From: Candidatus Limnocylindria bacterium
GTDB taxonomy: Bacteria; Chloroflexota; Limnocylindria; Limnocylindrales; CSP1-4
Direction: 5' to 3'
Assembly: GCA_041482475.1 (NCBI GenBank)
Contig: JBGPDX010000001.1
Coordinates: forward strand, 1-47,957
DNA: 47,957 nucleotides
Position numbers and translations under genes: made by a program. Of this stretch, positions 2,730-47,751 are shown piece after piece. The notes beneath the pieces were generated by a model, which worked only from the letters and a program-made list of their open reading frames with translations, was not told where the DNA came from and did no database searches. Positions within the stretch are counted from its first letter, which is position 1. Every line of letters starts with the position of its first letter.

Positions 2730-2794
2730 TCGGCCCCCGCGAACGGGCCGGACGTCCCTTCTCGCCCGAGGGCGCCGGGCCGACGATCTCCGCC

Positions 2795-29150: not shown

Positions 29151-29206
29151 CCGTGCAGCGGCGAGCCGGTTGGCGCGGCGCTGCGGCACAAGTTGAGGAG
29201 GGTCTC

Positions 29207-30769: not shown

Positions 30770-30842
30770 GCCCATCGATGTCGAATCCCCGGAGCCGATC
30801 CCAGCGGGGTCGGCACTGAGGGATCGGGCCACGCGCCGAGCG

Positions 30843-32968: not shown

Positions 32969-33122
32969 GCGGCGGCGAGCGGCGCGGGCGTCGCGGCGAG
33001 GGGCGGCAGCGGGGGCGCCGGGGCCGGCCGGACCGGCCGCACATGCGGCTGTCGATTCGGTCGTCGGCCGTTCGTCTTCCGGGTAGAGCGGCCGCCAGGT
33101 CGCGATGCAGGAGGACCCTGAG

Positions 33123-33470
33123 ATGGCCGACCGGATCATTCACGTCGAGGTCGTCGGGCGGGACGCCGGCAAGCTCCAGCGCTTCTTCTCGGAGCTGTTC
33201 GGCTGGAAGCTCGACACCAACAACCCGGGCGGGTACGGCATGGCGTCGGCTGCCGACAACGGCGTCGTGACCGGCATCGGCTCGACGCCGGACGGTAGCG
33301 CCGGCCACACTACGTTCTATGTCGCCGTCAAGGACATCGACAAGGCGCTCGAGAAGGCGACGAAGCTCGGCGGACGGGTGATCATGCCGAAGATGAGCCC
33401 CGGCCCGAACGCAACGATCGCCCTGCTGGCCGACCCGGAGGGACACGTCATCGGCCTGAGCGAGGTCTGA
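33123..33470 (+). CDS. VOC (glyoxalase I-like) family protein
   Basis: Sequence MADRIIHVEVVGRDAGKLQRFFSELFGWKL...TFYVAVKDIDKALEKATKLGGRVIMP...IALLADPEGHVIGL. GGAGGA lies upstream of ATG 33123. Confidence 0.8.
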   Translation: MADRIIHVEVVGRDAGKLQRFFSELFGWKLDTNNPGGYGMASAADNGVVTGIGSTPDGSAGHTTFYVAVKDIDKALEKATKLGGRVIMPKMSPGPNATIALLADPEGHVIGLSEV

Positions 33471-33486
33471 TCCGGGGCGTGATCCG

Positions 33487-33520
33487 CGCGCGGCCGCCGT
33501 GTCGCTGCGGCGGCCGCGCG
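33487..33520 (+). terminator. GC-rich hairpin terminator candidate
   Basis: Perfect 13-bp stem CGCGCGGCCGCCG / CGGCGGCCGCGCG with an 8-nt loop, 17 nt after the VOC stop. There is no U-tract. Confidence 0.5.
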
Positions 33521-33575
33521 ACCGCTCGGCCGCCCACGCTCGGCGCAGGTCAGCGTCCGCCGGATCGCGAGGCGT

Positions 33576-33899
33576 ATGGTTCGCACCATGAAGGGCGATC
33601 GCGTCGAGGCCATCGTCGACACGGGACAGGGTGTCCAGCGCTTCGAGATCGTCGCCACCCGCAACGGCCGGCGGATCGAGGTGACGACCGCTCGCGGGGT
33701 GGTCGAGGTCACGGAGGTGACGCGCGGCGGGACGCCCGTCCGGACCGGCCGCTTCATGGCGAGTCGCCTGATCGCCCTGGTCGAGCACCCCGCCCAGGAG
33801 GGGGACGGCGCCGGCGTCGACGTGACCACCCGGCGGCGGCTGGGTGGCCTCGAGGCTGCGCGCGGCCGCCGGGCGGCTCAGGCCGAAGTGGCGGAGTAG
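33576..33899 (+). CDS. hypothetical protein (107 aa)
   Basis: The ORF has strongly GC-biased third positions. The sequence (MVRTMKGDRVEAIVDTGQGVQRFEIVATRNGRRIEVTTARGVVEVTEVTRGG...) has no motif I recognise. Confidence 0.4.
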   Translation: MVRTMKGDRVEAIVDTGQGVQRFEIVATRNGRRIEVTTARGVVEVTEVTRGGTPVRTGRFMASRLIALVEHPAQEGDGAGVDVTTRRRLGGLEAARGRRAAQAEVAE

Positions 33900-33906
33900 C
33901 GCCCGC

Positions 33907-34584
33907 CTACTCTTCCGCGTCCGTGCCGGCCACCACGACACCGATGATCCCGGCCGCTTGCTCGATCGCGTCGACGAGGTTCGACCCGGCTCGCTGCCTG
34001 ATCTCGAATCCGACGGCGAACTTCGTCGTCTCGAGCCGCTCGGTCTGGACGCCGACGATCTCGAGCCGATTCCGAGCCAGGACTGCCGAGATCTCGGCCA
34101 GCGCCTCCAGCCGGTCGACGACCAGGTTGAGCCGCATCGTCAGCCGGTCGGCGCGGTGGAGGCGCTCGGCGACCCGGTTGAGCGGCCACAGCGAGAAGAT
34201 CACGATGATCGATCCGGTCAGCCCGATCACGTACTCGCCCGCGCCGGCTGCGAGCCCGATGGCGGCCGTCGCCCAGAGACTTGCCGCCGTCGTCAGGCCG
34301 CGGATCGACGCGCCGTCCTTGATGATCGCGCCGGCGCCCAGGAAGCCGATCCCCGACACGATCTGGGCGGCGACGCGCGACGGGTCGATCTGCGACGACG
34401 TCGTCCCCTGGAACGCGAAGATCGACAGCTCTGTGAAGATCGCCGACCCCAGCGCGACGAGAAGGTGTGTCCGCATCCCGGCCGGGTGGCCGTGGATCTC
34501 GCGCTCGACGCCGATCAGTGCGCCGAGCGCGGCCGCGATCAGCAGCCGAACCGACAGGTCGGCCTGGAGGGTGAAGTCGGTCAT
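33907..34584 (-). CDS. mgtC: MgtC/SapB-family membrane protein with a C-terminal ACT-like domain
   Basis: Sequence LLIAAALGALIGVEREIHGHPAGMRTHLLVALGSAIF...AAQIVSGIGFLGAGAII...GLTTAASLWATAAIGLAAGAG. The symbol is meant at family level only. Confidence 0.85.
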   Translation of the reverse strand: MTDFTLQADLSVRLLIAAALGALIGVEREIHGHPAGMRTHLLVALGSAIFTELSIFAFQGTTSSQIDPSRVAAQIVSGIGFLGAGAIIKDGASIRGLTTAASLWATAAIGLAAGAGEYVIGLTGSIIVIFSLWPLNRVAERLHRADRLTMRLNLVVDRLEALAEISAVLARNRLEIVGVQTERLETTKFAVGFEIRQRAGSNLVDAIEQAAGIIGVVVAGTDAEE

Positions 34585-34747
34585 CGCGACCTGGCCTGGC
34601 GGGAGAGACGGGGCGCCGAGACGAGGCCGGACCGCGGCGCGAGGGACGTGTCCATGGTCGCCCGCAGTCTAGGCTGCGGTCGGCGGGCCCGCGCGTCCGC
34701 GGCGAGCGCCGGGACCGCCGGCGGGCCGCGTCCGGGGCGGCCGACGG

Positions 34748-35713
34748 TCAGTCGCGGGCGACGGCCCGCGGAGTGGCGACCTCCTCCAGGTCGAGCCAGG
34801 CGATCTCCTCCGCGGTCAGTGATAGCTCGACCGCCCGCGCGTTCGACCGCAACTCCGCGGGGGTTCGCCCGCCGGCGATGGCGACGGTCGGAAACGGCTG
34901 GTTGAGCACCCAGCCGAGCGCGACCTGACCGGCGTCGAAGCCGCGCGTCGCACCCAGGAGCGCCGCCCGGCGCCGACGCTCGCGATTGTCCGCGCTGTCG
35001 TAGACGGCGATGACTCGCCGATCGTCCGTCTCGAGCGAGTCCGGGTCGCGCACCGCGAAGAAGCCGGCGGCCTGCGGCGACCAGGCGAGGAGCGGCAGCC
35101 GCCTGGCCGCATACCAGTCGCGCGTCGCGCGCTCGGAGGCCGATGCGCAACCTGCCCACGGCGGCTGTGACCAGCGCGCCAGTGACAGGTTCGGGCTGCT
35201 GCAGACGAAGCCGCGCAAGCCGTGACTTCGGGCGTGGGCGTCGGCCTCGTCCAGGCGGTCGGTCGACCAGTTCGACGCGCCGATCGCGCCGAACCGGCCC
35301 GCTTCCAGGTGCCCGTTGAGCCAGTCGAGGATGGCGCCGACGGGGACGCCCGGGTCGTCGCGATGGAGGACGTAGAGGTCGACGCTGTCGAGGCCGAGGC
35401 GCTCGAGGCTGCCGAGCAGGTCCGCCTCGATGTCGGCCGCCGTCATCCGCGACCGCCCGTCGTAGGGGTGGGCGCCCTTCGTCTCGATGATGACCTGGTC
35501 GCGACGACCGCCCTCGGCGAGCCAGCGGCCGATCACCAGCTCGGAGCCGCCGAGACCGTAGTTCTGGGCCGTGTCGACGAGGTTGCCGCCCAGGTCGAAG
35601 AACGCCTCCAGCAGCGCCGACGCCTCATCGAAGCGCTCCGGCGCGAACCACGCCGTACCCAGGGCAAGTCGCGAGACGGGCGTATCGAGATGCGACAGGA
35701 CGATGTGGTCCAG
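34748..35713 (-). CDS. aldo/keto reductase; probable non-canonical (CTG) start
   Basis: The C-terminal 321 aa of ORF 34748..36331 form an AKR (LGTAWF...GGNLVDTAQNYGLGGSELVIGRWL...VDLYVLHRDDP...GASNW). No ATG, GTG or TTG lies between the SIS stop (35724-35726) and the catalytic D/Y block. A CTG at 35711-35713 lies 6 nt after AGGGGA. Confidence 0.7.
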   Translation of the reverse strand: MDHIVLSHLDTPVSRLALGTAWFAPERFDEASALLEAFFDLGGNLVDTAQNYGLGGSELVIGRWLAEGGRRDQVIIETKGAHPYDGRSRMTAADIEADLLGSLERLGLDSVDLYVLHRDDPGVPVGAILDWLNGHLEAGRFGAIGASNWSTDRLDEADAHARSHGLRGFVCSSPNLSLARWSQPPWAGCASASERATRDWYAARRLPLLAWSPQAAGFFAVRDPDSLETDDRRVIAVYDSADNRERRRRAALLGATRGFDAGQVALGWVLNQPFPTVAIAGGRTPAELRSNARAVELSLTAEEIAWLDLEEVATPRAVARD

Positions 35714-35723
35714 CGGTCGTCCC

Positions 35724-36761
35724 CTAGCGGGTGAGGGTGACCTTTCGGAGGTGCCGCGGCGCGTCGGGGTCGAGACCGCGGGCGCGGGCCAGATGATAGG
35801 CGACGAGCTGGCACGGGACGATCGACACGACGGGCATGAGCCAGTCCGGGACGCCGGCCGGCAGGCGAAGGCCGGCGCCCAGGCCCAGGGCGTCGTCGCG
35901 GTCGGAGACGACGACGAGGTCGACGCCGAAGTCGTCACGGAGGCGCGCGAGGAGGGCGACCAGGTCGGCCGCCGGCGGGCCCGACGGTGCCACGGCGAGG
36001 ACGGCGAAGCCCGGCTCCAGAAGGGCCAGGGGGCCGTGCTGGAAGTCGGCTGACGAGTAGGGATCGGCGAGCAGCCGGGCCAGCTCCTTGAGCTTGAGCG
36101 CCCACTCGCGAGCGGTGGCGTACTCGAAACCGCGGCCCAGTACGATGGCGCCGCCGATGCCCGAACGCGCCCGCGCGACCTTCCTCGCCTCCGGTTCGAC
36201 CTCGAGGGCGGCCGCCATCGCCGACGGCAGGTCCGCCAAGGACGCCTCGGCGGCCGCGTCGTCGGGCCCCAGGGCGACCGCGAGCAGGGCGATCGCGACG
36301 AGCTCCGCGGTGTAGGTCTTCGTCGCCGCAACCGCTCGCTCCTCGCCGGCGGCGAGGTCGACGGCGTACTCGGCGGCCATGGCGAGGGGCGAACCGGGGC
36401 GGTTGGTGATGGCGATCGTCGGCGCGCCCTGGCGCCGCGCGGCGGCGACCACGGCGACGACGTCGGGCGACTCGCCGGACTGGCTGATGCCGAGCACGGC
36501 CGACCGCCCGAAGCGAGGCTCGACCCCGTAGAGCGTCACCAGCGACGGGGCCGCCAGGGCCACCGGCATCGCCAGGCGCACGCCCAGGACGTACTGGGCG
36601 TAGACGGCCGCGTGGTCCGACGTCCCTCGTGCGGCGATGACGACCTCGTCCACGCCGCGCCGGCGGAGCTCGGCGGCGATCCTCGCGATCGCGTCCCGCC
36701 CGTCCGCGATCAGCCGCGCGACGACGGCGGGTTGTTCGCGGATCTCGTCCCTCAGGCCCAC
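35724..36761 (-). CDS. SIS-domain sugar-phosphate isomerase/deaminase (GlmS isomerase-domain-like; NagB-II/FrlB type)
   Basis: 345 aa with two SIS repeats (VVIAARGTSDHAAVYAQY, VLGISQSGESPDVV, AVAATKTYTAEL, GRGFEYATAREWALKLKE). Confidence 0.85.
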   Translation of the reverse strand: MGLRDEIREQPAVVARLIADGRDAIARIAAELRRRGVDEVVIAARGTSDHAAVYAQYVLGVRLAMPVALAAPSLVTLYGVEPRFGRSAVLGISQSGESPDVVAVVAAARRQGAPTIAITNRPGSPLAMAAEYAVDLAAGEERAVAATKTYTAELVAIALLAVALGPDDAAAEASLADLPSAMAAALEVEPEARKVARARSGIGGAIVLGRGFEYATAREWALKLKELARLLADPYSSADFQHGPLALLEPGFAVLAVAPSGPPAADLVALLARLRDDFGVDLVVVSDRDDALGLGAGLRLPAGVPDWLMPVVSIVPCQLVAYHLARARGLDPDAPRHLRKVTLTR

Positions 36762-36771
36762 CGGCGAGGCG

Positions 36772-37644
36772 CTAGCCCTTGACCGCGCCGGCGAGGCCGC
36801 GGACGAAGTAGCGCTGGACGGCGACGAAGAAGATCAGGATCGGCACCACGGTCATCGTCACACCCGCGGCGATCGACCGGAAGTCCGAGCTGAAGAAGCC
36901 CTGCAGCGCGGCGAGACCGACCGGCAGGGTCATCGATTCACGGGTATGGAGCATCAGCGACGGCCACAGGAAGTCGTTCCACGACACGACGAAGGTGAAG
37001 ATCGCCACCGCCGCGAGCGACGGCCGGACGATCGGCAGCATGACGTGCCACCAGATCCTGGCCTCGTTCGCCCCGTCGATCCGGGCCGCGTCGAGCAGGT
37101 CGTTCGGGACGCTCCGGAACGCCTGGCGCAGCAGGAAGATGTTGAACGCGCTGGCGAGATTCGGGAAGACGAGGGCCGGCAGGGAGTCGTAGTAGTGGAA
37201 GACGTTGACCGCGAGCACGAAGCTGGGGATGTACGTCAGCTGGACCGGGACGATGAGCGTCGCGAGCAGCAGGTAGAAGATCCCGTCACGACCGCGGAAC
37301 CGCATCTTGGCCAGCGGATACGCGGCGAGCGATGCCACGACGACGTTCAGGACGACGACGGCGATCGAGACAACGATGCTGTTGAGGAAGAAGTGCAGGA
37401 CCGGCAGCGAGTCCCAGACCTTGGCGTAGTTGTTGAGGGTGGGGTCGCCGGGGAGGAACTGTGGCGGCACCGAGAAGATGAGGTCCTTCGGACCCTTCAG
37501 CGACGTCAGCAGGATCCAGGCGAACGGGAAGACCGTGATGACGCTCATCACGATGAGCAGGGCGTACCAGAAGATGTTCTGTGCCCGGAAGCGTCGCCGT
37601 CGGGCGACCCTGAGCGAGACCGCACGGGCCTGCGGCGTCGCCAT
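36772..37644 (-). CDS. ABC sugar transporter permease (MalG-like)
   Basis: Internal ATG (complement 37642-37644) overlaps the upstream stop (TGATG). The N-terminus is ALLIVMSVITVFPFAWILLTSLKGP and the EAA loop is LLDAARIDGANEARIWWHVMLPIVRPS. Confidence 0.9.
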   Translation of the reverse strand: MATPQARAVSLRVARRRRFRAQNIFWYALLIVMSVITVFPFAWILLTSLKGPKDLIFSVPPQFLPGDPTLNNYAKVWDSLPVLHFFLNSIVVSIAVVVLNVVVASLAAYPLAKMRFRGRDGIFYLLLATLIVPVQLTYIPSFVLAVNVFHYYDSLPALVFPNLASAFNIFLLRQAFRSVPNDLLDAARIDGANEARIWWHVMLPIVRPSLAAVAIFTFVVSWNDFLWPSLMLHTRESMTLPVGLAALQGFFSSDFRSIAAGVTMTVVPILIFFVAVQRYFVRGLAGAVKG

Positions 37645-38519
37645 CAGTCGGCCGTCGTTCCGCGTTCCAGGAGCCGGACGTTGAAGACGGAGAAGGCCAG
37701 GGTCAGCGCCAGCAGGACGATCGCGATCGCCGACGCGTAGCCGGCATGCTGGAGCGTGAAGGCCTGCTTCCACAGGTAGAAGACGACCGTCACTCCGCTG
37801 TCGAGAATCCCACCCGTGCGGTTCGTCAGGACGTAGATCTCGTCGAACACCTTCAACGCGGCGAGGCTCGAGATGACCGCGACGAAGACGATCTGCGGCC
37901 GGAGTCCGGGCAGGCTGACGTGCCAGTGCTTCTGGAAGTCGTTGCAGCCGTCGATCCGGGCGGCGTCGTAGAGCTCCTCCGGGATGTTCTGGAGGCCGGC
38001 CAGGAAGATGACCGAGTAGTACCCGACGCCCGCCCAGATCGTCAGCATGATGGCGATCGGCAGGATGAGCGACGGGTCGCTGAGCCACTGGATGGGCTCT
38101 TTCAGGACGCCCAGCCAGAGCAGCACGCTGTTGATGAAGCCGTTGCGGTCGAACAGCCAGCGCCACGAGATGCCGATGGCGATGCTGCCGCTGATGGCCG
38201 GGACGTAGTACAGCGCGCGGAACACGTGGATCCCGCGCAGCCGGCGATTGACGACGATGGCGAGGACGATCGACAGCACGATCAGCGTCGGCGTCGCGAT
38301 CAGGTAGACGAGCGAATTCGTGAGCGCTTTCCAGAACGTCGGGTCGGCCACGAGCTGGCGGTAGTTGTCGAGGCCTACCCAGACGGGCGGCCGGACGATG
38401 TCATAGCTGGTGAAGCTGTAGTAGACGACGCTGGCGATCGGGTAGAGCACAAAGACCGCGATCAGCCCGATGGCCGGCGCGAGGAAGAGGTACGGGGTCA
38501 GCGATCGCTTCTGTGTCAT
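37644..38519 (-). CDS. ABC sugar transporter permease (MalF-like)
   Basis: 291 aa. The N-terminus is TPYLFLAPAIGLIAVFVLYPIA and the EAA loop is PEELYDAARIDGCNDFQKHWHVSLPGLRP. Confidence 0.9.
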   Translation of the reverse strand: MTQKRSLTPYLFLAPAIGLIAVFVLYPIASVVYYSFTSYDIVRPPVWVGLDNYRQLVADPTFWKALTNSLVYLIATPTLIVLSIVLAIVVNRRLRGIHVFRALYYVPAISGSIAIGISWRWLFDRNGFINSVLLWLGVLKEPIQWLSDPSLILPIAIMLTIWAGVGYYSVIFLAGLQNIPEELYDAARIDGCNDFQKHWHVSLPGLRPQIVFVAVISSLAALKVFDEIYVLTNRTGGILDSGVTVVFYLWKQAFTLQHAGYASAIAIVLLALTLAFSVFNVRLLERGTTAD

Positions 38520-38583
38520 CGTCTCGTGGTCGTCCGGTCGGCCCCCTCCCGGACCGGAAGGGGGCCGTTGGCGCGGATTGCCG

Positions 38584-39981
38584 CTACTTGATCAACGCGT
38601 TGGCCTTCGCCACCGCGTCGCTCAACGCCTTCTGAGCCGGGACCGGATTGGTCCCGAACAGGGCGGATTCGATGGCCTTGCGGACGATCTCGTTGACGTC
38701 GCCCTTGCTGGGCACCGTCGGGACGATGTCCTGGTAGGTCGAGACGATGCTCTTGGCGATCGGCCGCGCGCTGTCCTCGATGGCCGACGGCGTGCCCGAG
38801 AAGAACGGGTCGTCGTACGACTTCGGGGTCGACGGGTAGATGGCCACCAGCTTCGAGAACTCGAGCATGCTGCGGGCGTTCGTGAAGTATTGGGCCAGTG
38901 CGATCGACGCGTTCGGGAACTTCGTGTCGGCCTTGACGGAGATGCCCATCAGCCCCTTGCTGGCGACCCCCGATTTGCCGATCGGTGCCTGGACGACGGC
39001 CAGGTTGTTGTAGAGCTGGGAGTTGTTCGACTTCACCTCGCGGATGAGGTTCGGTCCGGTCTGGTAGAAGGGCGCCTGTCCGGCCGAGAAGAGGAGCAGT
39101 CCGACGCGGTCATCGGTGCTCGTCAGGATCGAGTTGTCGACGGTCCCGGCCTTGACCATGTCGGCGTACCTCTGGAGCCACGCGACCGCCTCGGGCGAGT
39201 CGAACGTGAACTTCTTGCCGTCGTCGCTGATGACCTTGACGCCGGCGTCGTAGACCATCTGGGCGAGCAGGTCGCTGACCGTCAGGCGGATATCGCAGAC
39301 GGTGGAGGCCTTGTCCTTTAGGGTCTGGCAGATGTCCTTCAGCCCGGCGACTTCCTTGGGGAAGTCCTCCGGCTTGAGGCCCGCCTTGTCGAAGATCTGC
39401 TTGTTGATCAGGTCGACATTGATGCTTTGGTACCACGGGAACTGGAAGTTCTTGCCCGCGACGAGCTGCTCCTTCCACAGTCCCGGGAAATAGACATCCT
39501 TGACGGCCTGCGGGACCCTGTCGTCGAGCGGGAGCAGGAGTCCCTTCGACGCGTAGTCGCTGACCCAGCCTTCGGCGACCGACAGGTTGATGACGTCCGG
39601 TGCGCTCTTCGCGGCGTAGGAATTGTCGAGGTCCTGGCGGAACGTCGCCTGGTGGTCTTCCCACTTGACCGTGACGCCCGGGTAGGTCGCCTCGAAGCGG
39701 GCGATCGTCGCCTTGATGTAGTTGTCGAATGCCGGCGACAGGTAGAACGTCCAGAACGTGATCTGGGCATTCGGCTCGACGTTCTGGATGACGGCTTCGG
39801 CCGGATCCGGCGCCAGCGGCGCGGCGCTGGCCGGAGCGGCGGCGGTGGCCGACGCGGCCGCCGATGCCGCAGCGCTGGCCACCGCGGACGAGGCCACGCT
39901 CGGCGACGGACTGGCGTTCGTCGAGCAGGCGACGGCAAGCACCGCGGCCAGCGCGAGCGCCAAGAGTTTCCTGATGTTCAC
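38584..39981 (-). CDS. ABC sugar transporter substrate-binding lipoprotein
   Basis: GTG at complement 39979-39981, after GAGGAGGA. Signal plus Cys (VNIRKLLALALAAVLAVAC), an S/A-rich tether, then an SBP fold (ITFWTFYLSPAFDNY...). Confidence 0.85.
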   Translation of the reverse strand: MNIRKLLALALAAVLAVACSTNASPSPSVASSAVASAAASAAASATAAAPASAAPLAPDPAEAVIQNVEPNAQITFWTFYLSPAFDNYIKATIARFEATYPGVTVKWEDHQATFRQDLDNSYAAKSAPDVINLSVAEGWVSDYASKGLLLPLDDRVPQAVKDVYFPGLWKEQLVAGKNFQFPWYQSINVDLINKQIFDKAGLKPEDFPKEVAGLKDICQTLKDKASTVCDIRLTVSDLLAQMVYDAGVKVISDDGKKFTFDSPEAVAWLQRYADMVKAGTVDNSILTSTDDRVGLLLFSAGQAPFYQTGPNLIREVKSNNSQLYNNLAVVQAPIGKSGVASKGLMGISVKADTKFPNASIALAQYFTNARSMLEFSKLVAIYPSTPKSYDDPFFSGTPSAIEDSARPIAKSIVSTYQDIVPTVPSKGDVNEIVRKAIESALFGTNPVPAQKALSDAVAKANALIK

Positions 39982-40099
39982 CTGGGGATCCTCCTCGTTA
40001 CGACTGTCATCTGGGATCGCGCGGCCGGTCGCTGTCGTGCCATCACCTCTGCGATCGGCCCGTCTGGGTGGTCTCGATTCGTCTGTGCCGGGTGAGCGT

Positions 40100-41119
40100 C
40101 TAGCCGTCGCCCACCTCCCTCCCCACTGGCGTCGAGCGCGCGCCGGCGAGCGCCGATCGGGCCAGGGCGATCGCGCCCCAGGCACCGCTGTCCGCGGCCG
40201 GCAGCAGGTGGACGACACCGGGCACGAGGACTTCGCGCGCGAGCGGCGAGGCGTCGCGCAACCGGTCGAGTGCCCGCAGGAGCGGGTCGAGGAACGCGTC
40301 GCGAGCCTGGGCGACGCCGCCACCGACGGCCACGATCTCGACGTCGTAGGCCATGACGAGCAGGTGGATCGCGCGAGCGAGAAGCGCCCCGACGTCGTCG
40401 GCGACGCGGACGGCGAGCGGATCGCCCGCGGCGGCCGCCTGGTAGACGTCGGCGGCTGTGAGCGGATCGACGCCGGCCAGCGATGATTGGCCGTCCGCGG
40501 CGAGCGCTTCGGCGGCTCGCCGGGCGACGGCAGGTCCGGCGGCGAGCGTCTCGAAGCAGCCTCGAAGTCCGCACGGGCAGGCAGGACCGTTGGCGTCGAC
40601 GACGATGTGGCCGATCTCTCCGGCCATGCCCCGCGGTCCGCGGCGGACTCGTCCGTCGAGGACGATGCCGGCCGAGATGCCGGTCCCGACGCTCAGGTAG
40701 GCGAAGTCCTCGACCTCGCCGAGGACGCGGCGCTCACGCAGTCCGGCGGCGGCGGCGCGCACGTCGTTCTCGAGGGCGACGGGAACGCCCAGTGCACCGG
40801 ACAGCCGCGGGCCCAGCGGCAGGTCGTGCCACCCCAGGTTGACCGCCTGGGACACGGTGCCGGCGACGGGATCGACGCGGCCCGGGACGCCGACGCCGAT
40901 TGCGCCGACGGAGGCGAGGCCGCTCCCCGCTTCGGCGAGGGCGGCGCCGATGGCCTTGCCGATCACGTCGACAGCCCGGGCCGGCGCCCCGACGGCCGTC
41001 GGCAGCGTGTAGCGCGCACGGACGACGAAATCCCGATCCGTGACGAGGACGGCGATCTTGCTGCCGCCCACGTCGACGCCGACGAGCAACCCACGATCGG
41101 TTCGCGCGACGTCGGTCAT
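40100..41119 (-). CDS. ROK-family sugar kinase
   Basis: ATP-binding motif LLVGVDVGGSKIAV, block ENDVRAAAAG and the ROK zinc motif GEIGHIVVDANGPACPCGLRGCFE. There is no HTH. The ATG overlaps the regulator stop as ATGA. Confidence 0.85.
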   Translation of the reverse strand: MTDVARTDRGLLVGVDVGGSKIAVLVTDRDFVVRARYTLPTAVGAPARAVDVIGKAIGAALAEAGSGLASVGAIGVGVPGRVDPVAGTVSQAVNLGWHDLPLGPRLSGALGVPVALENDVRAAAAGLRERRVLGEVEDFAYLSVGTGISAGIVLDGRVRRGPRGMAGEIGHIVVDANGPACPCGLRGCFETLAAGPAVARRAAEALAADGQSSLAGVDPLTAADVYQAAAAGDPLAVRVADDVGALLARAIHLLVMAYDVEIVAVGGGVAQARDAFLDPLLRALDRLRDASPLAREVLVPGVVHLLPAADSGAWGAIALARSALAGARSTPVGREVGDG

Positions 41120-42321
41120 CGCGCCGGCACGAGCCCCAGCTCGCGGACCATCAGCAGAGCCGCCGCGCCAAGGACGACCTCGTCGGTCGACGCGCGCCCG
41201 ATGTCGATCCGGGTTCGGCCACCGAGCATGCCCAGCGAGCGTCGCGCAGCCTCGTCACGGACCGCCTCGAGCCAGGGCTCGCCGAGCGCGGCCACGCTGC
41301 CGATGAGGACGATCCGATGGATGTTGAGGGCGCCGATGAGACTCGCCACCGCCGCGCCGAGGAAGCGTCCTGCGGCCACGACGACCCGGCGCGTCGACTC
41401 GTCGCCGGCGTCCAGGCCGGCGCGGATGGCCTCGAGATCGAGCGTGCCATGGGCGGCCAGACGCCGCCCAAGGAACGAGTCTGGTGTGGCCTCCGCAGCC
41501 TCGGTCGCGTCGCTGAGAATGGCCCGCGAGCTGGCTACGGTCTCCAGGCAGCCGAACCGGCCGCAGCGGCACGCCTTGCCATCGTCGACGATCCCCGTGT
41601 GGCCAATCTCGCCGGCGCCGAACCCGTCGCCGTGGAACAGCTCACCACCGAGGACGACCCCGGCGCCGATGCCGTGGCCCACCCTGATCGCGATGAGGTT
41701 CGCCGAGGCGCCCTCGCCGGCGAATCGGTACTCGGCGAACGCCGCCGCACGCGAGTCGTTGGCGACGTACGTGGGCACGGCGAAGCGCTCGCGGAGCAGC
41801 CGGCCGAGCGGCAGGTCCTGCCAGTCGAGGTTGACGGCCCAGCGGATCGTGCCGTCCCCGGCATCGACGATGCCGGGCGTTCCGACGCCGATGCCCAGCA
41901 GCAGCCCGGGCACCTCGCCAACCAGCTGATCGACGAGGCGGTAGACGACCTCGAGCGCCTCGTCTCCGTTACGGCCGCCGACCGGCAAGCTGGCCGTCCG
42001 GCGGATCTCGCCGTGGAGGTTGACCACGGCGCCGTTGAACGCCCGTTCCCCCAGGTCCAGGCCGATCACGTGGCGGGCGTCCCCGTCGACCTGGACGAGG
42101 ATCGGGGCCTTGCCGCCGCTCGATGGGCCGCGCCCGACTTCCCGGGCGAGGCCGTCGGACAGGAACGCATTGACGAGCTGACTGACCGTGGTTCGGGTCA
42201 GCCCGGTGAGGCGCGCGACCTCGGCGCGGCTGACCGGGCCATGGTCGTAGAGGGTCCGCAGGACAAGGCCCTGGTTGTGGGCCCGGGTCTGACGATGGGT
42301 CGCCTTGGCGGGCAGCGGCAT
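41116..42321 (-). CDS. ROK-family transcriptional repressor (NagC/XylR-like)
   Basis: An N-terminal wHTH (NQGLVLRTLYDHGPVSRAEVARLTGLTRTTVSQLVNAFLSDGLA) is fused to a ROK domain (ANDSRAAAFAE, GEIGHTGIVDDGKACRCGRFGCLE). The ATG is at 42321; the track ORF starts at GTG 42336. Confidence 0.85.
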   Translation of the reverse strand: MPLPAKATHRQTRAHNQGLVLRTLYDHGPVSRAEVARLTGLTRTTVSQLVNAFLSDGLAREVGRGPSSGGKAPILVQVDGDARHVIGLDLGERAFNGAVVNLHGEIRRTASLPVGGRNGDEALEVVYRLVDQLVGEVPGLLLGIGVGTPGIVDAGDGTIRWAVNLDWQDLPLGRLLRERFAVPTYVANDSRAAAFAEYRFAGEGASANLIAIRVGHGIGAGVVLGGELFHGDGFGAGEIGHTGIVDDGKACRCGRFGCLETVASSRAILSDATEAAEATPDSFLGRRLAAHGTLDLEAIRAGLDAGDESTRRVVVAAGRFLGAAVASLIGALNIHRIVLIGSVAALGEPWLEAVRDEAARRSLGMLGGRTRIDIGRASTDEVVLGAAALLMVRELGLVPAR

Positions 42322-42335
42322 GTCCCCTCGCGGCA

Positions 42336-42379
42336 CTTTGGCAAATGAGTTGACAAAGGCAGTCTAGGGGCTTTGTCAA
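42336..42379. promoter_or_regulatory. three copies of a 9-mer (CTTTGKCAA / TTGACAAAG); candidate ROK-repressor operators and promoter
   Basis: CTTTGGCAA lies at 42336-42344, TTGACAAAG at 42350-42358 (inverted) and CTTTGTCAA at 42371-42379. The last two form a perfect 9-bp inverted repeat with a 12-nt spacer. TTGACA is also a -35-like hexamer. Confidence 0.45.
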
Positions 42380-42538: not shown

Positions 42539-45310
42539 TTGCAGTCCGCACCCCGTCGCGTCGAGAGGACGCCCGTCCACCGCCGGCCATCCACCCCGGG
42601 CTGGATCGCCGTGATCGTCTTCGGACTCCTTGCCGCCATCGGCGCGCTCGTCGCCATCGCCGTCGTCGGCGGCTACCTGGTCCTCTCCCGCGACCTGCTG
42701 AGTCCCCAGGACCTCGCGGTCCCGCAGGCCGAGGAATCGATCGTCTACGACCGGACCGGCAAGATCGAGCTGGCCCGCTTCGGCCAGATCCACCGGGAGG
42801 CGGTCGCCTTCGACCAGATCCCGACGATTCTCATCGACGCCACGACGGCGGTCGAGGACAAAACGTTCTGGACGAACACCGGCTTCGATCCCGCGGCCAT
42901 CGTGTCGGCCGGGCTCGACGCCCTGCGCGGACGTAGCCGCGGCGCCTCGACGATCACCCAGCAGCTCGTCCGGCAACGGCTCCTCGCGCCCGCCCTCGTC
43001 CAGTCGGACTCGCGGACGCTCGAGCGGAAGCTCAAGGAGATCATCCAGTCGATCCGGCTCACCCAGTATTACAGCGGCGAGGACGGCAAGCGCCAGATCA
43101 TCACCGCCTACCTCAACCAGAACTTCTACGGCAACAGCAGCTACGGCGTGAAGGCGGCCGCACGGAGCTACTTCAACAAGGACCTCAAGGACCTGACCCT
43201 CAGCCAGGCCGCGATTCTCGCCGCGCTGCCACAGTCGCCGTCGAGCTACGACCTGGTGCGGAACGCGATCGAGCAGGACGACGGCAGCCTGGTCGTGCCG
43301 TCCGACACGGAGATCGTCCAGCGCCGCAACGTCGTCCTCGATCTGTTGGCGAGCGGCCGGACGCCGCTATCGGGCAGCGAGTACAGCGCCGCCGACTTCG
43401 AGGCCGCCAAGCAGGACCCGGTCGTCCTCGCCCCCCAGACGGAGACCCGCTGGATCGCGCCGCATTTCGTCTGGGCCGTCCGCGACGAGCTGACCCGAAC
43501 GCTGTGCGGCGAGGGCGCCCAGACCTGTCCGCAGATCGAGCAGGGCGGCCTGCGGATCACGACGACGCTCGACGTCGATCTTCAGAAGGCGGCCGAGAAG
43601 TGGGTCAAGGCGGCGGCCATCGTCCCCAGGGCCAAGGACCCGAAGCAGGCGGCCAGGGACCTTGGCCTGAAGTACGACACGTGGATGCAGCGGCTGCGCG
43701 ACAAGGACCTGAACAACGGCGCCCTCGTGGCGATCGACTACCAGACCGGGGAGCTGGTGGCCTACGTCGGGTCGGCCGACTACTACGCCAGGAAGGGCAG
43801 CCCGCAGTTCCAGCCGAAGTTCGACGTTGTCGGCGACGGCTACCGCCAGCCCGGGTCCGCCTTCAAGCCATTCAACTATTTGACCGGGATCGACGATCAC
43901 ACGCTGACGGCGTCGACGATGTTCATGGACGTCTCCACGGACTTCGGCGGCAACTACCACCCGACCGATGCCGACAACCTCGAGCGGGGTCCCGTCCGCG
44001 TCCGGATGGCCCTCCAGTTCTCGCTCAACATCCCGTCGGTCAAGGCGGGCCTGGTCAACAGGACCGAGCACGTGTTCGCCCGGGTCCAGGACTTCGGGAT
44101 GCGCTTCCGGGAGGGCGCGACAGCCCCCGGACCTGCGCTCGCTCTCGGGGTCCAGGAGATTCGGCCGGTCGACCTCGTGACGGCCTACGCGACGCTGGCG
44201 AACCAGGGTCGCTACGTCGGCCACACGACCATCCTCCACGTCCAGGACGCCAGCGGCAACGACGTCATCGCGGCGTACGACGAGCATCCCCAGGGGCAAC
44301 AGGTGGCGAGCCCGGAGGCGGCCGCGATCGTGACGGACATCCTCGCCGGCAACACCGATGTCAAGGTCAACCCGTTCTGGGGCAAGTTCGCCATTCTCGA
44401 CGCCGGAAAGCGGCGACCGGCGACCCTCAAGACCGGCACCAACAACGACGCCAAGGACCTCAATGCCTACGGCTTCATCGCCCCGCCCACCGCACAGGGC
44501 CGGGCGGCCGGCGAGTTCGCCCTGGCCGTCGGAGTGTGGAACGGCAACTCCGACAACACGGTCGTCTCGACGCCCCAGAAGCCCGTCTTCTCGATCGACG
44601 TCTCGACCTACGTCTGGCAGGGCTTCCTGACCGAGGCGACGAAGGGCTGGCAGATCAATGCCTTCACGCTCCCGAATACCCTGGTCACAGCCGACGTCGA
44701 CCCGTGGACGGGCCTCAAGCCGGCGCCTGGCGGCAAGAGCGTCAAGGAGCTCTTCATCGGGGGGACGGAGCCGACCCAGTCCGTCGGAAACGGCGGCGGC
44801 GTCTGCGGCCAGGCGGTCCTCGACACCGCCGGCTTCGAGTCGCGGTTCGACCAGTGGATGACGGCGGACCGCAACTGGATCGCCCGCGCCCAGCGCGGGC
44901 CCGGCGTCGCCGGTGGCCCCGACCGCACCCGGACGACGTACTTCTACAACCGGTCGTTCATGCCGTATGGCGCGTCGTGGGGACCGCTGCTCAACGGCGC
45001 CGGGTGCGAGACGCCGGGCCCGAGCCCCAGCTGCTACCTGCTGCCCACCCCGGACGCGTCGGGCGTGGTGCCCTCCTTCGCAGTGCCCAGCCCCAGCGGC
45101 TCCGGTCCCGCCCCCGAGCCGTGTCCAACGCCGTCGGCCGAGCCTTCGCCGTCCGAATCGACATCGCCGTCACCGTCGCCAAGCCCGTCGCCTCCGGTGT
45201 CGACGTCCCCGGGACCGACGCCGAGTCCGGTGCCGACGCCGAGCGCGTCGGCGTCCGCGCCGCCGAGCGCATCCGCGTCCGCCTCGCCCGGCCCGGCTGG
45301 CCCGAGCTGA
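42539..45310 (+). CDS. class A penicillin-binding protein (GT51 transglycosylase + transpeptidase) with a P/S-rich C-terminal tail
   Basis: 923 aa with a TTG start 6 nt after GGAG. It has an N-terminal TM anchor and GT51 motifs (ATTAVEDKTFWTNTGFD, GASTITQQLV, RKLKE). The transpeptidase motifs SxxK (PGSAFKP), SLN and KTGT are present. The last ~90 aa are P/S/T/A low-complexity sequence. Confidence 0.9.
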   Translation: MQSAPRRVERTPVHRRPSTPGWIAVIVFGLLAAIGALVAIAVVGGYLVLSRDLLSPQDLAVPQAEESIVYDRTGKIELARFGQIHREAVAFDQIPTILIDATTAVEDKTFWTNTGFDPAAIVSAGLDALRGRSRGASTITQQLVRQRLLAPALVQSDSRTLERKLKEIIQSIRLTQYYSGEDGKRQIITAYLNQNFYGNSSYGVKAAARSYFNKDLKDLTLSQAAILAALPQSPSSYDLVRNAIEQDDGSLVVPSDTEIVQRRNVVLDLLASGRTPLSGSEYSAADFEAAKQDPVVLAPQTETRWIAPHFVWAVRDELTRTLCGEGAQTCPQIEQGGLRITTTLDVDLQKAAEKWVKAAAIVPRAKDPKQAARDLGLKYDTWMQRLRDKDLNNGALVAIDYQTGELVAYVGSADYYARKGSPQFQPKFDVVGDGYRQPGSAFKPFNYLTGIDDHTLTASTMFMDVSTDFGGNYHPTDADNLERGPVRVRMALQFSLNIPSVKAGLVNRTEHVFARVQDFGMRFREGATAPGPALALGVQEIRPVDLVTAYATLANQGRYVGHTTILHVQDASGNDVIAAYDEHPQGQQVASPEAAAIVTDILAGNTDVKVNPFWGKFAILDAGKRRPATLKTGTNNDAKDLNAYGFIAPPTAQGRAAGEFALAVGVWNGNSDNTVVSTPQKPVFSIDVSTYVWQGFLTEATKGWQINAFTLPNTLVTADVDPWTGLKPAPGGKSVKELFIGGTEPTQSVGNGGGVCGQAVLDTAGFESRFDQWMTADRNWIARAQRGPGVAGGPDRTRTTYFYNRSFMPYGASWGPLLNGAGCETPGPSPSCYLLPTPDASGVVPSFAVPSPSGSGPAPEPCPTPSAEPSPSESTSPSPSPSPSPPVSTSPGPTPSPVPTPSASASAPPSASASASPGPAGPS

Positions 45311-45316
45311 CACGGC

Positions 45317-45342
45317 GAAGCCGCCGACCGGTCGGCGGCTTC
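45317..45342. terminator. perfect 26-bp palindrome; candidate bidirectional terminator
   Basis: GAAGCCGCCGACC/GGTCGGCGGCTTC lies 7 nt after the PBP stop and 48 nt after the stop of the convergent 37-aa ORF. Confidence 0.6.
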
Positions 45343-45390
45343 ACTGCGGTTGCGAGTCCGCGGCTCCCCCCAGGCCGCGGACGATCGAGC

Positions 45391-45504
45391 CTACTTCGGG
45401 AACGGGCCGGGGCCGCTCCCGGCGAATGCGGCTACTGCGCCGAGCAGCGACAGCAGCGCGGCGACCGTTCCGGCGGACAACACGGACCTCAGCGAGACGC
45501 GCAT
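45391..45504 (-). CDS. unlisted 37-aa ORF encoding a signal-peptide-like pro-peptide (MRVSLRSVLSAGTVAALLSLLGAVAAFAGSGPGPFPK)
   Basis: Found by hand and below the track's size cutoff. ATG at complement 45502-45504, with GGAGG 9 nt upstream. GC3 is high in frame. The n-region has 2 Arg, the hydrophobic core is about 20 aa, and A-F-A|G is a plausible signal-peptidase site leaving GSGPGPFPK. It is flanked by a terminator palindrome. Confidence 0.4.
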   Translation of the reverse strand: MRVSLRSVLSAGTVAALLSLLGAVAAFAGSGPGPFPK

Positions 45505-45571
45505 CTCCAGGGACCTCCATTCCTCCGTGGCCGGGCTTGGCACGGGACCTCACCGATGCTATGGTTCGGCC

Positions 45572-45892
45572 GTGCGAAAGTCAAGTATTGCTAAACATTT
45601 CCGCGCTGGGGCCGGCAGCCCGCTGTCGCTGGCCATTGGGCGGGAGCTTCGCCGTCAGCGCCAGGCGCGGGGCCTGACCCAGGCGTCGCTGGGGGCCCCG
45701 CTGACGCGGGCCTTCGTCTCCGCGGTGGAGCACGGCCGGACCGTGCCGTCGATCCCGGCCCTGGCGCTCCTGGCGGATCGGCTGGAAGTACCGCTCGATG
45801 ACTTCTTTTCGGGAGTCAAGATCGAGATGACCGTGCTGTACAATGGCGGCCATGAACGCCGTACGAACCCGCCGTCGCGTTGTCGTCGATGA
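45572..45892 (+). CDS. small XRE-family HTH protein
   Basis: The in-frame GTG at 45572 is the closest start to the HTH (LSLAIGRELRRQRQARGLTQASLGAPLTRAFVSAVEHGRTVPSIPALALLADRLEVPLDDFF). The upstream part of ORF 45350..45892 looks non-coding. The 3' end overlaps the next gene by 50 nt. Confidence 0.55.
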   Translation: MRKSSIAKHFRAGAGSPLSLAIGRELRRQRQARGLTQASLGAPLTRAFVSAVEHGRTVPSIPALALLADRLEVPLDDFFSGVKIEMTVLYNGGHERRTNPPSRCRR

Positions 45893-47144
45893 CCGTCCGC
45901 TGGCGCACGCGATCGGCCAGCGCCTCCGCCAGGCTCGCCTCGCCGCCGGCCTGACCCAGCAACAGCTCGCCGGCGACCGCTATACGAAGGCCTACATCAG
46001 CGCCCTCGAGAATGGCATCGCCAAGCCGTCGATGGCCGCCCTGAACTACCTCGCCCCGCGCCTCGGCAAGACCGCCTCGGAGATTCTGTCCGATCCCAGC
46101 CGGGCGTGGGCGCGGCTGGAGGCGGACCTCGCGCTTGCGTCGGGCAACTGGCAGGCCGCTCTCGACGGTTACGCGGGCCTCCTCGAGGAGGTCCAGGAGC
46201 GAGGATCAAGAGCCGAGTTGCTCACCGGGATCGCCGAGAGCCACTGCCGGCTCGACCATCCGGCAGAGGCCATCCGGCCCGCGGCCGACGCCTCGGCGAT
46301 CTTCGCCGACCTTGGTCGTGAGGCAGATCGAGCGCGCGCCGACTACTGGCTTGGGTCGGCCCATCATCAGCAGGACAACCAGGACGAAGCGCGGGCCGTG
46401 CTGCGGTCGATCCTCGACCGGACCCGTAGCGGAATCGAGCTGGGCCCCGACTTCAGCACCCGCGTCCTCATCGCGCTGGCGGCGGTCGAGACGCACGACG
46501 GCGAGCCGGCCAAGGCCCGCGCCTACCTGGAAGAGGGCCGGACGCTCGCCGGGGAGCTCGACATGCGCCGACGCGGCGCCTTCATGGCCACGCTCGCCAC
46601 CGCTTACCGCGACGCCGGGGACCTGGAGGCGGCCATCCGCCTGGGGCTCCAGGCGCTGGCGCTGTTCCAGGCCGCGGAATCGGACCTGGACGCGGGCCTC
46701 GTCGAGAACCAGCTCGCCCTGGCCTACCTGGCCATGGGTAACGTCGACCGGGCGCGGACCACGATCCGCCGTGCCCGGACGACCGCGGACGGCGCCGAGC
46801 GGCTGGCGGCCGTCCTCACCGACACCGAGGCGATGATCGAGCTGGGCGCCGGCAACCTCGATCGGGCGCTCCAGCTGGCCGATGAAGCCATCCAGCTTGC
46901 CGAACGGACGGAGAACCAGAAGGGCGTGCTCGACGCGCTGACGACGCGCGCCAGGACGTTCTCCGCCATGGGCCGCCACGACGATGCCGCAGCCGCATTC
47001 GAACGTGCGCACGACCTGGCCGAACGGACCGCTCCGGCCTCGAGGCGTCGCCAGATCCTCAGCGCCTGGGCGGATTCGCTGGCGGCTCTCGGGCGCCACG
47101 ACGAGGCGTTCGCCATCGCGAGGCGTGCCCTCGCGTCGCACTGA
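45843..47144 (+). CDS. XRE-family HTH regulator fused to a TPR-repeat domain
   Basis: 433 aa. The HTH is LAHAIGQRLRQARLAAGLTQQQLAGDRYTKAYISALENGIAKPSMAALNYLAPRLG. About 330 aa of helical-hairpin repeats follow, with TPR-like spacing (e.g. GNWQAALDGYAGLL, GDLEAAIRLGLQALALF, GNVDRARTTIRRA, GRHDDAAAAFERAHDLA, GRHDEAFAIARRAL). The alternative ATG is at 45852. Confidence 0.8.
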   Translation: MAAMNAVRTRRRVVVDDRPLAHAIGQRLRQARLAAGLTQQQLAGDRYTKAYISALENGIAKPSMAALNYLAPRLGKTASEILSDPSRAWARLEADLALASGNWQAALDGYAGLLEEVQERGSRAELLTGIAESHCRLDHPAEAIRPAADASAIFADLGREADRARADYWLGSAHHQQDNQDEARAVLRSILDRTRSGIELGPDFSTRVLIALAAVETHDGEPAKARAYLEEGRTLAGELDMRRRGAFMATLATAYRDAGDLEAAIRLGLQALALFQAAESDLDAGLVENQLALAYLAMGNVDRARTTIRRARTTADGAERLAAVLTDTEAMIELGAGNLDRALQLADEAIQLAERTENQKGVLDALTTRARTFSAMGRHDDAAAAFERAHDLAERTAPASRRRQILSAWADSLAALGRHDEAFAIARRALASH

Positions 47145-47163: not shown

Positions 47164-47751
47164 ATGTCTGCGGGCGGCCGCCGGCTGACGCTATCGCCGA
47201 TCGGCTTCGATATCGTCCTCGCCCTGAGCCAGGCGCCGGACGGCCTGCGGTTGGCCGACATCGGCCGGATCATCGGGTCGCCGGTCAGCTCGGTTCAGAC
47301 CGCGCTGCGGATCCTCATCGCCAACCACCTCGTCGATCGCGCGGAGGCCGACCCGCCGCGGTACGGCCTGTCCGTCGAGCATCCCGCCCGGGAGGAGCTC
47401 GCCTCGCTGGCGACCGTGCTCCCCGAGCCGGCGCACGCGATCGGCATCATCCTCCGCGCCAACCCGGCCGTCCGCTACGCCGCGGTGGACTCGATCGGGT
47501 TCCTCGTCGCCGAAGGCCGCGATTCGGACCGTGCCGCGGTCGACGCTCTGAACCGCCATCTCGCCCTCGTCGCCGACGCCCGGTCCGATGCGCCGACCCT
47601 GATGCGCATGACCGATGAGGAGCTGGGGCGCCTCGCCCGGGTCGCGATGGGCCTGCGCAAGCGGGTCCGACAGGCGCTCACGATCAAGGGCCGGCCTCCG
47701 GTCGTCGTCAACGCGACCGACGCGGACCGCGCGAGGCCCGCCGCCGGCTGA
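47164..47751 (+). CDS. winged-helix (MarR/IclR-like HTH) protein with an uncharacterised C-terminal domain
   Basis: Internal ATG at 47164 of ORF 46984..47751. Sequence IGFDIVLALSQAPDGLRLADIGRIIGSPVSSVQTALRILIANHLVDR looks like a wHTH. I do not recognise the remaining ~120 aa. Confidence 0.55.
   Translation: MSAGGRRLTLSPIGFDIVLALSQAPDGLRLADIGRIIGSPVSSVQTALRILIANHLVDRAEADPPRYGLSVEHPAREELASLATVLPEPAHAIGIILRANPAVRYAAVDSIGFLVAEGRDSDRAAVDALNRHLALVADARSDAPTLMRMTDEELGRLARVAMGLRKRVRQALTIKGRPPVVVNATDADRARPAAG

Follow-up and report, generated by a model that had tools for sequence, protein, structure and literature searches.

To our knowledge, peptide signalling of the RRNPP type has been treated as a trait of Firmicutes and of Firmicutes phages. 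Full-text literature searches for RRNPP together with Chloroflexi, and for quorum sensing together with Limnocylindria, returned nothing relevant. The RRNPP signature has been described by five criteria, comprising a propeptide of 10-100 aa with a Sec/signal peptidase I (SPase I) signal (SignalP) or a match to SHP, and a receptor of 250-500 aa with tetratricopeptide repeats (TPRs), the two genes being direct neighbours at -60 to 400 bp (PMC10075063, Bernard et al. 2023). The largest survey of such systems, made with RRNPP_detector, covered only Firmicutes and viruses (PMC10075063). Here, a locus was analysed at positions 45391-47144 of a 47,957-nt stretch of DNA from a Candidatus Limnocylindria bacterium (Chloroflexota; contig JBGPDX010000001.1 of assembly GCA_041482475.1; the window). 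It carries a gene for a 37-aa pre-peptide, a divergent gene for a small helix-turn-helix (HTH) protein of the XRE type, and a gene for a 433-aa XRE-HTH + TPR protein, the candidate receptor. A first-pass annotation had proposed an RNPP/Rgg-style cassette; most of the RRNPP architecture and a conserved pairing of peptide and regulator were recovered, while the operators proposed with it and a match to the Rgg model were not. The chance that Ca. Limnocylindria has here a vertically conserved cassette for RRNPP-like peptide signalling is judged to be about even, and a new RRNPP-like variant is the most likely reading. As far as sequence can tell, the locus would work like an RRNPP system without being a demonstrated member, and it credibly extends a known signalling logic, in variant form, to a new phylum.

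Receptors with an N-terminal XRE-type HTH followed by TPRs, as in the 433-aa protein, occur in NprR-NprX and PlcR-PapR of the Bacillus cereus group. With about 423 aa and nine TPRs, NprR is similar in size and repeat number to the protein found here, which has 433 aa and about nine helix pairs. The NprX and PapR propeptides (about 40-48 aa) have an N-terminal Sec signal and their active part at the extreme C-terminus, as is proposed here, and the genes are neighbouring and autoregulated (PMC10075063). The genes papR and nprX follow their receptor genes co-directionally, whereas the peptide gene studied here is divergent, with overlapping promoters. Propeptides of the NprX/PapR type need extra proteolysis, whereas SPase alone would give the 9-mer here. 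Sequence similarity is confined to the HTH (PlcR, E 1.9e-5) or marginal (NprR 5dbk, E 0.024), and the locus is a class-wide conserved chromosomal one of Chloroflexota, not a strain-variable one of Bacillota.

In Rgg-SHP and PrgX-PrgQ of streptococci and enterococci, the peptide gene is likewise divergent and the promoters are closely apposed or overlapping. Regulators of the Rgg/PrgX type bind at or near the peptide promoter. SHP and PrgQ lack a Sec signal, are exported by PptAB and cut by Eep (PMC10075063), whereas the peptide described here looks like a Sec/SPase I substrate. Unlike Rgg, the candidate receptor carries canonical Pfam TPRs, and the Rgg model (TIGR01716) was not among its NCBIfam matches at E <= 0.01. 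The RcoLS20/RapLS20/Phr*LS20 system of pLS20 likewise combines a small XRE repressor at divergent promoters with a TPR protein and a secreted peptide (PMC3814332). RapLS20 has no HTH and acts as anti-repressor on Rco, whereas the TPR protein here has its own HTH, paralogous to the small XRE protein. In addition, the small XRE gene is dispensable in one of the two clades of loci described below (clade B), and the locus is chromosomal instead of plasmid-borne. The arbitrium system AimR-AimP of Bacillus phages also has an HTH + TPR receptor and a Sec-exported propeptide of about 43 aa with a C-terminal signal (PMC10075063). In contrast to the present locus, it is phage-borne and co-directional, and its mature hexapeptide is made by extracellular proteases. 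AimR was not listed among the sequence or fold matches of the candidate receptor. Compared with the known systems, the locus is further set apart by apparently leaderless regulator genes in an overlapping-promoter design. The propeptide of 37 aa, the receptor of 433 aa and the presence of TPRs lie within the size and domain ranges of the signature, and the architecture appears to fit most of it (PMC10075063).

The peptide gene and its product

Orthologous XRE-TPR loci were collected by a genome scan, by look-ups of individual homologues and by a metagenome scan with the receptor alignment, the last of which yielded 80 loci at 47-82% identity. Peptide genes at these loci were detected with a hidden Markov model (HMM) built from the first peptides and run against six-frame translations. 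A minus-strand open reading frame (ORF) for the peptide was present at 74 of the 86 loci, which is 74 of the 75 that could be scored. At the 11 unscorable loci the sequence ended <=410 nt upstream of the receptor gene; in two of them the truncated N-terminus of the peptide was visible at the contig edge. The first-pass annotation had named lack of conservation of the small ORF, in frame or sequence, as a ground for its own refutation; beside orthologues of the 433-aa gene the ORF proved clearly conserved in both respects, and the conserved part is the C-terminal tail. The HMM matched none of five unrelated TPR loci. The sole scorable locus without the peptide ORF, L075, has ample upstream DNA. 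At this locus (1836-3000), the upstream DNA contains, on the opposite strand, a 176-aa ORF resembling extracytoplasmic-function sigma factors, and the receptor ORF is extended at its N-terminus (463 aa when read from a TTG).

In the window, the pre-peptide gene of 37 codons plus stop occupies 45391-45504 on the minus strand and translates as MRVSLRSVLSAGTVAALLSLLGAVAAFAGSGPGPFPK. The G+C content of its three codon positions is 0.66/0.61/0.89, in line with the GC-rich third positions (GC3) read from it before, and both the 37-aa and the 106-aa small XRE gene are listed by the gene caller of the Joint Genome Institute (JGI) on an identical contig. The ribosome-binding site reported earlier was also found: a Shine-Dalgarno (SD) sequence GGAGG stands at 45514-45518 (minus strand), 9 nt before the ATG. 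It is conserved, with GGAGG or AGGAG upstream of almost every orthologous ATG, and its complement CCTCC is the only conserved block between the peptide ATG and the promoters. GC3 alone does not distinguish the ORF from its mirror antisense frame, where GC3 is equally high (0.89) and stops are few. The ratio of nonsynonymous to synonymous substitution rates (dN/dS) was calculated for 128 close pairs and was 0.32 for the peptide frame, whereas the mirror frame had 0.44 and the remaining four frames 1.2-2.4; the value for the tail was 0.385. Conserved peptide residues are encoded by several synonymous codons in the set of distinct orthologues.

That the ORF is not a gene, and owes its conservation to an N-terminal extension of the small XRE protein, to mirror-frame GC3 bias or to conserved DNA elements, is hardly credible. 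The composition and dN/dS of the mirror frame are what such an explanation would draw on, together with an XRE reading frame that is open back to 45350 in the window. Against it, dN/dS is lowest in the peptide frame, and start codon, SD, stop position and protein features are kept in 64 distinct sequences with synonymous variation. A dedicated promoter is present in 40/40 loci, and clade B has no XRE gene to extend. The extension itself was rejected, the XRE frame being open across the peptide region in only 6 of 40 loci. On these comparisons of sequences, the small ORF is a real gene, translated-looking and under purifying selection.

A profile of 31 peptides retrieved 272 database clusters, mostly of 36-42 aa. 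Nearly all named clusters are called hypothetical protein, one is an evident mis-annotation, and none carries a Pfam domain. No match of the family to any Pfam or NCBIfam model was found. The single-sequence phmmer search with the 37-mer gave only four relatives, and the family emerged through the profile search; by its sequence conservation the peptide constitutes a well-supported new gene family. One 2427-aa protein (P0122) matches the 37-mer in 11 stretches (E 1e-6); it is presumably unrelated, a repetitive protein of low complexity that is rich in Ala, Leu and Gly.

The distinct orthologues are 34-42 aa long in 63 of 64 cases; a single 26-aa call is probably truncated. Two to four Lys or Arg residues stand within the first ten positions in 61/63 peptides, Asp and Glu are absent before the cleavage motif in all 63, and the uncharged run spans 22 residues in 47/63. 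Ala occupies position -1 in 63 of 64 peptides, and in 60 of these 63 position -3 is Ala or Val. Small or polar residues are found at -4 to -7, and +1 is G, A, D, S or V and never Pro. The tail has 9 aa in 45/63 peptides. The distance from the A/V-x-A motif to a hydrophobic residue followed by Pro is exactly six residues in 60/61 peptides, the hydrophobic residue being F in 44/61; after the Pro comes K, R or H and then the stop, often with 2-3 extra residues in clade B. In the window, the predicted signal part corresponds to codons 1-28 (45421-45504, minus strand), with A-F-A at positions -3 to -1, and the predicted released 9-mer GSGPGPFPK to 45394-45420 (minus strand), which follows the tail pattern conserved in the orthologues. 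The tail motif follows the receptor clade: clade-A tails end x-P-F/Y/L/W-P-K/R/H, and clade-B tails read [A/V][S/T]GGGDFPR, with or without LR or FR.

The same anatomy was weighed for a product that stays uncleaved, as a single-pass membrane microprotein with N-in orientation and an exposed 9-residue tail that modulates a membrane or envelope protein and is regulated by the XRE proteins. The 22-residue uncharged run equals a membrane span in length, and many bacterial proteins of 30-40 aa are membrane-embedded modulators. Such a product is nevertheless considered improbable. The near-invariant A/V-x-A exactly six residues before the hydrophobic-Pro pair is a feature of a signal-peptidase site, and an anchor has no reason to keep small or polar residues at -4 to -7 or to avoid Pro at +1. 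Cleavage and a ligand of defined length are argued from the fixed six-residue spacing and the constant 9-residue tail. Three further assignments of the product were rejected. A Pfam match to holins (E 0.019) is below the cut-off and a composition effect. A twin-arginine translocation (Tat) signal or a lipoprotein does not apply, the RR pair not being conserved and a lipobox Cys being absent. A precursor of a ribosomally synthesized and post-translationally modified peptide was dismissed as no modifying enzymes are encoded nearby.

The XRE-TPR gene and its linkage to the peptide gene

The divergent small XRE gene is located 67 bp from the peptide gene, as the first-pass annotation had it. It starts with GTG at 45572 and extends to 45892 on the plus strand, encoding a stand-alone HTH protein of 106 aa (Pfam HTH_31/HTH_3; HTH_31 2.1e-10). 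The gene for the 433-aa XRE-HTH + TPR protein follows immediately at 45843-47144 on the plus strand (TPR_12 6.9e-24, HTH_31 4.7e-9), likewise as described before, and overlaps the 3' end of the small XRE gene by 41-50 nt in a different frame. The conserved C-terminal ...SRRRR of the small XRE protein is probably a by-product of the invariant N-terminal RRRVVVDD of the receptor, encoded in the other frame.

The orthologous loci fall into two clades. In clade A, which includes the window, the order is PBP1A, peptide gene (reverse), small XRE, XRE-TPR, a 195-aa protein with a winged-helix (wHTH) match, molybdopterin oxidoreductase and DUF3090. Clade B, also from Limnocylindria and with a receptor identity of about 47%, has LigD, a NifU-like gene, the peptide gene (reverse), XRE-TPR, an unrelated 185-196-aa gene on the other strand and DUF3090. 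The small XRE gene of the clade-A loci and the 195-aa wHTH gene are absent from clade B, and there the peptide and receptor genes are directly divergent, with starts 165-191 bp apart. Because the other neighbours differ between the clades, the XRE-TPR gene is the only one that is always found in the immediate neighbourhood of the peptide gene. It is indicated as the partner of the peptide, since clade B, without the small XRE gene, keeps the peptide gene directly divergent from it. In the reverse direction, starting from three peptide clusters, XRE-TPR was the divergent neighbour in 4/4 places inspected. By synteny, the locus is vertically conserved across the class Limnocylindria. One clade-B locus (L095/L096, P0276) comes from a metagenome-assembled genome at NCBI labelled Patescibacteria group bacterium; the contig is probably mis-binned or mislabelled, since its LigD, NifU and DUF3090 context is identical to that of Limnocylindria contigs.

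The adjacency of PBP1A in the window would suit the uncleaved membrane product considered above, but the linkage is not conserved: it is interrupted by an ACT-domain gene in L009, and the neighbour in clade B is a NifU-like gene. The ACT-domain gene separates PBP1A from the peptide gene in L009, L010 and L030, and the peptide gene therefore travels with the XRE genes and not with PBP1A. A functional link to PBP1A was rejected on account of the broken synteny in L009 and clade B. The inserted gene encodes 244 aa with a faint ACT-domain match (L009 1690-2424, L010 1168-1902) and belongs to one sub-lineage.

Pfam analysis of the 433-aa protein placed HTH_31/HTH_3 at residues 24-75 and several TPR families at about 148-425, with TPR_12 (6.9e-24), TPR_2 (5.8e-18) and TPR_MalT (3e-12) above the cut-offs. 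More than 1100 homologues were found, mostly of 430-433 aa and named Chloroflexota or Limnocylindr-. An AlphaFold2 (AF2) model calculated with 35 homologues was all-helical (mean predicted local distance difference test score, pLDDT, 86; predicted template-modelling score, pTM, 0.77) and consisted of a five-helix HTH, a linker and about nine TPR-like helix pairs. In a Foldseek search against the PDB, the best matches were the TPR domains of LGN/Pins (E ~1e-9, TM up to 0.75 on the target), and RapI was found at rank 44 (E 2.5e-6, TM 0.53-0.62). The TPR superhelices of LGN/Pins bind extended peptides in their inner groove. The comparison with PlcR, NprR and Rgg suggested by the first-pass annotation thus upheld the HTH + TPR architecture and gave generic HTH/TPR similarity only. 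As the sequence and fold matches look generic, homology to any RRNPP subfamily beyond the HTH and TPR modules is unsupported.

The small XRE protein is a paralogue of the receptor HTH, with 52% identity over 56 residues (19-74 of the 433-aa protein; E 6e-12). Nineteen alignment columns hold clade-specific receptor residues, with charge changes at 193, 413, 418, 420 and 427; in this exploratory comparison they possibly pair with the Asp of the clade-B peptide. An NCBIfam scan of the 433-aa protein gave nothing above the cut-offs. Assignment to the NsdA family of Streptomyces TPR regulators was rejected at 50.7 bits against an NCBIfam cut-off of 75 bits, the match covering residues 212-280 only. 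A toxin-antitoxin (TA) or anti-phage defence locus was also rejected: PADLOC gave generic HTH/TPR matches only, a HipB-type match was far below the cut-off, and the locus is syntenic and vertically conserved.

Control region and proposed circuit

A promoter consensus scan over 45250-45900 recovered exactly two sigma-70-like promoters, compared with 0.0 ± 0.1 in shuffled sequences. The peptide promoter (45556-45584, minus strand) consists of TTGACT (45584-45579), a 17-nt spacer and TAGCAT (45561-45556). In the form TTGAC[A/T/G]-17-TA[G/C]C[A/T/G]T it is found at the same place in 40/40 clade-A loci, and its -35 falls within the opening codons of the small XRE coding sequence. The small-XRE promoter (45537-45565, plus strand) has TTGGCA (45537-42), 17 nt and TATGGT (45560-65). 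Its -10 (TAnnnT) is conserved; the -35 is weaker, and the full promoter is above threshold in 19/40 loci. This -10 ends 6 nt before GTG 45572 in the window and 7 nt before the start codon in most orthologues, so the small XRE mRNA should be leaderless. The two divergent -10 hexamers overlap by 2 nt. Because of this overlap, and because each -35 lies in the transcribed side of the other promoter, the two promoters should exclude each other.

An invariant A/T-rich block of 18 bp, GTCAAGTATTnnTAAACA, was located at 45580-45597; it was matched exactly in 22 loci and is unique in the window. It comprises most of the -35 hexamer of the peptide promoter plus 13 bp upstream, all within codons 3-9 of the small XRE coding sequence. 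At codons 4-8 of that gene the third base is A or T in 90-100% of the loci, against a genome GC3 near 0.9, and the amino acid at codon 7 varies. The constraint on the block is thus attributed to DNA and not to protein. The block is a candidate for a -35 combined with either an operator or an UP element.

The XRE-TPR gene appears to have its own leaderless promoter. An internal -10, TGTACAAT, is situated at 45837-45844 (plus strand) in the 3'-terminal part of the small XRE gene, with 7 nt separating it from ATG 45852. The pattern TGTA[C/T]A[A/C]T-N7-ATG recurs in almost all of 38 clade-A loci, and clade B has TGTAGACT-N6/7-ATG at the matching distance. The real start of the receptor is probably ATG 45852 (430 aa), because of this conserved -10 and because most orthologues have 430 aa.

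Two elements that the first-pass annotation had read as regulatory proved to be present in the window without being conserved. GGACCTC occurs at 45484, 45511 and 45545 as described, one copy being simply the complement of the SD; with 17 copies in the window against 14.9 ± 3.8 expected and none conserved in orthologous loci, an operator role was rejected. The CCGTG/CACGG dyad exists as well (45525-29, 45541-45). As a conserved operator or hairpin of the 5' untranslated region (UTR) it was rejected by three structure tests of the dyad region: RNA folds per locus had a mean z of -0.2, RNAalifold gave no consensus pairs, and a positional stem test against shuffles was not significant. A second AGTCAAG motif (45814-45820) was rejected as an operator for lack of conservation. 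In clade B, a search identified no convincing peptide promoter. The clade-B intergenic region (165-191 bp; L055, L061) has a conserved inverted repeat, CCGATGGG-N15-CCCATCGG, and conserved GTACTTTCG and GGTCAAGTG blocks, which could be an operator or a 5'-UTR structure.

From these features, a circuit of the RRNPP type can be proposed. The pre-peptide would insert N-in via Sec, given its 2-4 N-terminal Lys/Arg residues, its approximately 22 uncharged residues and the absence of Asp/Glu before the motif. SPase I would cut after A/V-x-A (A-F-A here) and release a short peptide rich in Gly and Pro (9 residues; 11 in clade B), GSGPGPFPK in the window. The peptide would accumulate extracellularly and be taken up again, presumably via an oligopeptide permease. 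Once imported, it would bind the 433-aa protein on the concave side of its TPR superhelix and change DNA binding by that protein. The likely DNA target is the invariant 18-bp block at 45580-45597. Protein bound there would cover the -35 of the peptide promoter and approximately +9 to +26 of the leaderless xre transcript, so that a single site could govern the two promoters and complete a loop of autoregulation. The 106-aa HTH-only paralogue of clade A would probably serve as a signal-blind competitor for the same DNA, Cro-like or Rco-like.

Several points weigh against this proposal. Regulators are often divergent from genes that they merely regulate. Pherotype diversification, typical of many RRNPP systems, was not seen, both peptide and receptor being strongly conserved class-wide. 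The top fold matches of the receptor are generic TPR proteins; in the PDB profile search, PlcR (E 1.9e-5) and ComR matched over the HTH only, and RapH (E 0.0067) and NprR (5dbk, E 0.024) matched weakly. The export-signal features were scored by hand and are also compatible with a membrane anchor. In the window, the peptide and receptor starts are 338-347 bp apart with the small XRE gene in between, and no oligopeptide permease of the SBP_bac_5 type was seen in the scanned part of the window.

Some of these points would suit a peptide that is exported as an output and not as a ligand of the 433-aa protein. The XRE-TPR and small XRE proteins would then control its production, the TPR domain would sense something else or mediate protein-protein contacts, and the peptide itself would target some other receptor, for example a sensor in the membrane, or serve a different purpose outside the cell. 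In bacteria, no arrangement is commoner than a regulator divergent from its target, overlapping promoters are evidence of co-regulation and nothing more, the TPR domain is closest to generic scaffolds, and a tail conserved without diversification fits a conserved extracellular target equally well. Yet no other candidate receptor is conserved beside the peptide gene, where XRE-TPR is constant and the other neighbours vary, and for an HTH-TPR protein paired with a small gene for a Sec-type peptide, ligand and receptor is the one paradigm that has been described (PMC10075063). An output role is therefore rated as unlikely, though far from negligible, and the RRNPP-like cassette is retained as the preferred reading.

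In its boldest form, the proposal would make this the first case outside Bacillota of peptide quorum sensing through a cytoplasmic HTH-TPR receptor, and a class-wide, vertically inherited core circuit of the abundant and largely uncultured Limnocylindria. SPase alone would make the 9-mer, and a three-promoter switch, with one SD-led peptide gene and two leaderless regulator genes, would set the response together with the HTH-only paralogue. This extended form is advanced tentatively, at somewhat less than even confidence. Were it true, RRNPP-style signalling would have a much greater age, or more separate origins, than it is now credited with, and small unannotated peptides might be the partners of further orphan XRE-TPR regulators in high-GC bacteria. 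The locus provides a candidate with RRNPP logic conserved across a whole Chloroflexota class that is common in soils and fresh waters. The pairing also shows, in concrete terms, how ligands of orphan XRE-TPR regulators can be searched for, and the hypothesis is cheaply testable with a peptide, a protein and 70 bp of DNA, without culturing the organism.

Neighbouring genes and termini

A hairpin, GTCCGCGGC-N9-GCCGCGGAC, with a 9-bp stem was found at 45356-45382, 9 nt past the peptide stop, and is a probable terminator without a U-run. The perfect 26-bp palindrome that had been placed at the end of the small ORF does exist, at 45317-45342; it stands between the two convergent genes, at a distance of 49 nt from the peptide stop and 7 nt from the PBP1A stop, and is probably a shared (bidirectional) terminator region. 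A T-run is absent from both elements. The RNA fold of the 3' region of the peptide gene had -57.4 kcal/mol (z = -2.8).

The 195-aa protein is encoded at 47164-47751 on the plus strand and has a weak winged-helix N-terminus (HTH_IclR 4.8e-4, below the cut-off). It represents an orphan family that is syntenic 3' of XRE-TPR throughout clade A, with only a sub-threshold match to wHTH domains of the IclR/MarR type. No NCBIfam family was found for it, and its membership of the cassette is uncertain.

The window has a G+C content of 71%, and homologues of its proteins carry the names Chloroflexota, Candidatus Limnocylindria or Limnocylindrales. Known RNA families and tRNAs were not found in the window. 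The region 27813-42336 contains two sugar-type ABC transporter gene sets (SBP_bac_1, BPD_transp_1) and two ROK-family genes, one with a MarR-type HTH, as well as a SIS-domain gene, MgtC, a glyoxalase and an enolase-superfamily gene. PBP1A is encoded at 42539-45310 on the plus strand, with Transgly and Transpeptidase domains (Pfam). Its C-terminus (45060-45310) is a low-complexity tail of about 80 residues rich in Pro, Ser, Ala and Thr (PSPSPSPSPP...), typical of a linker that spans the cell wall.

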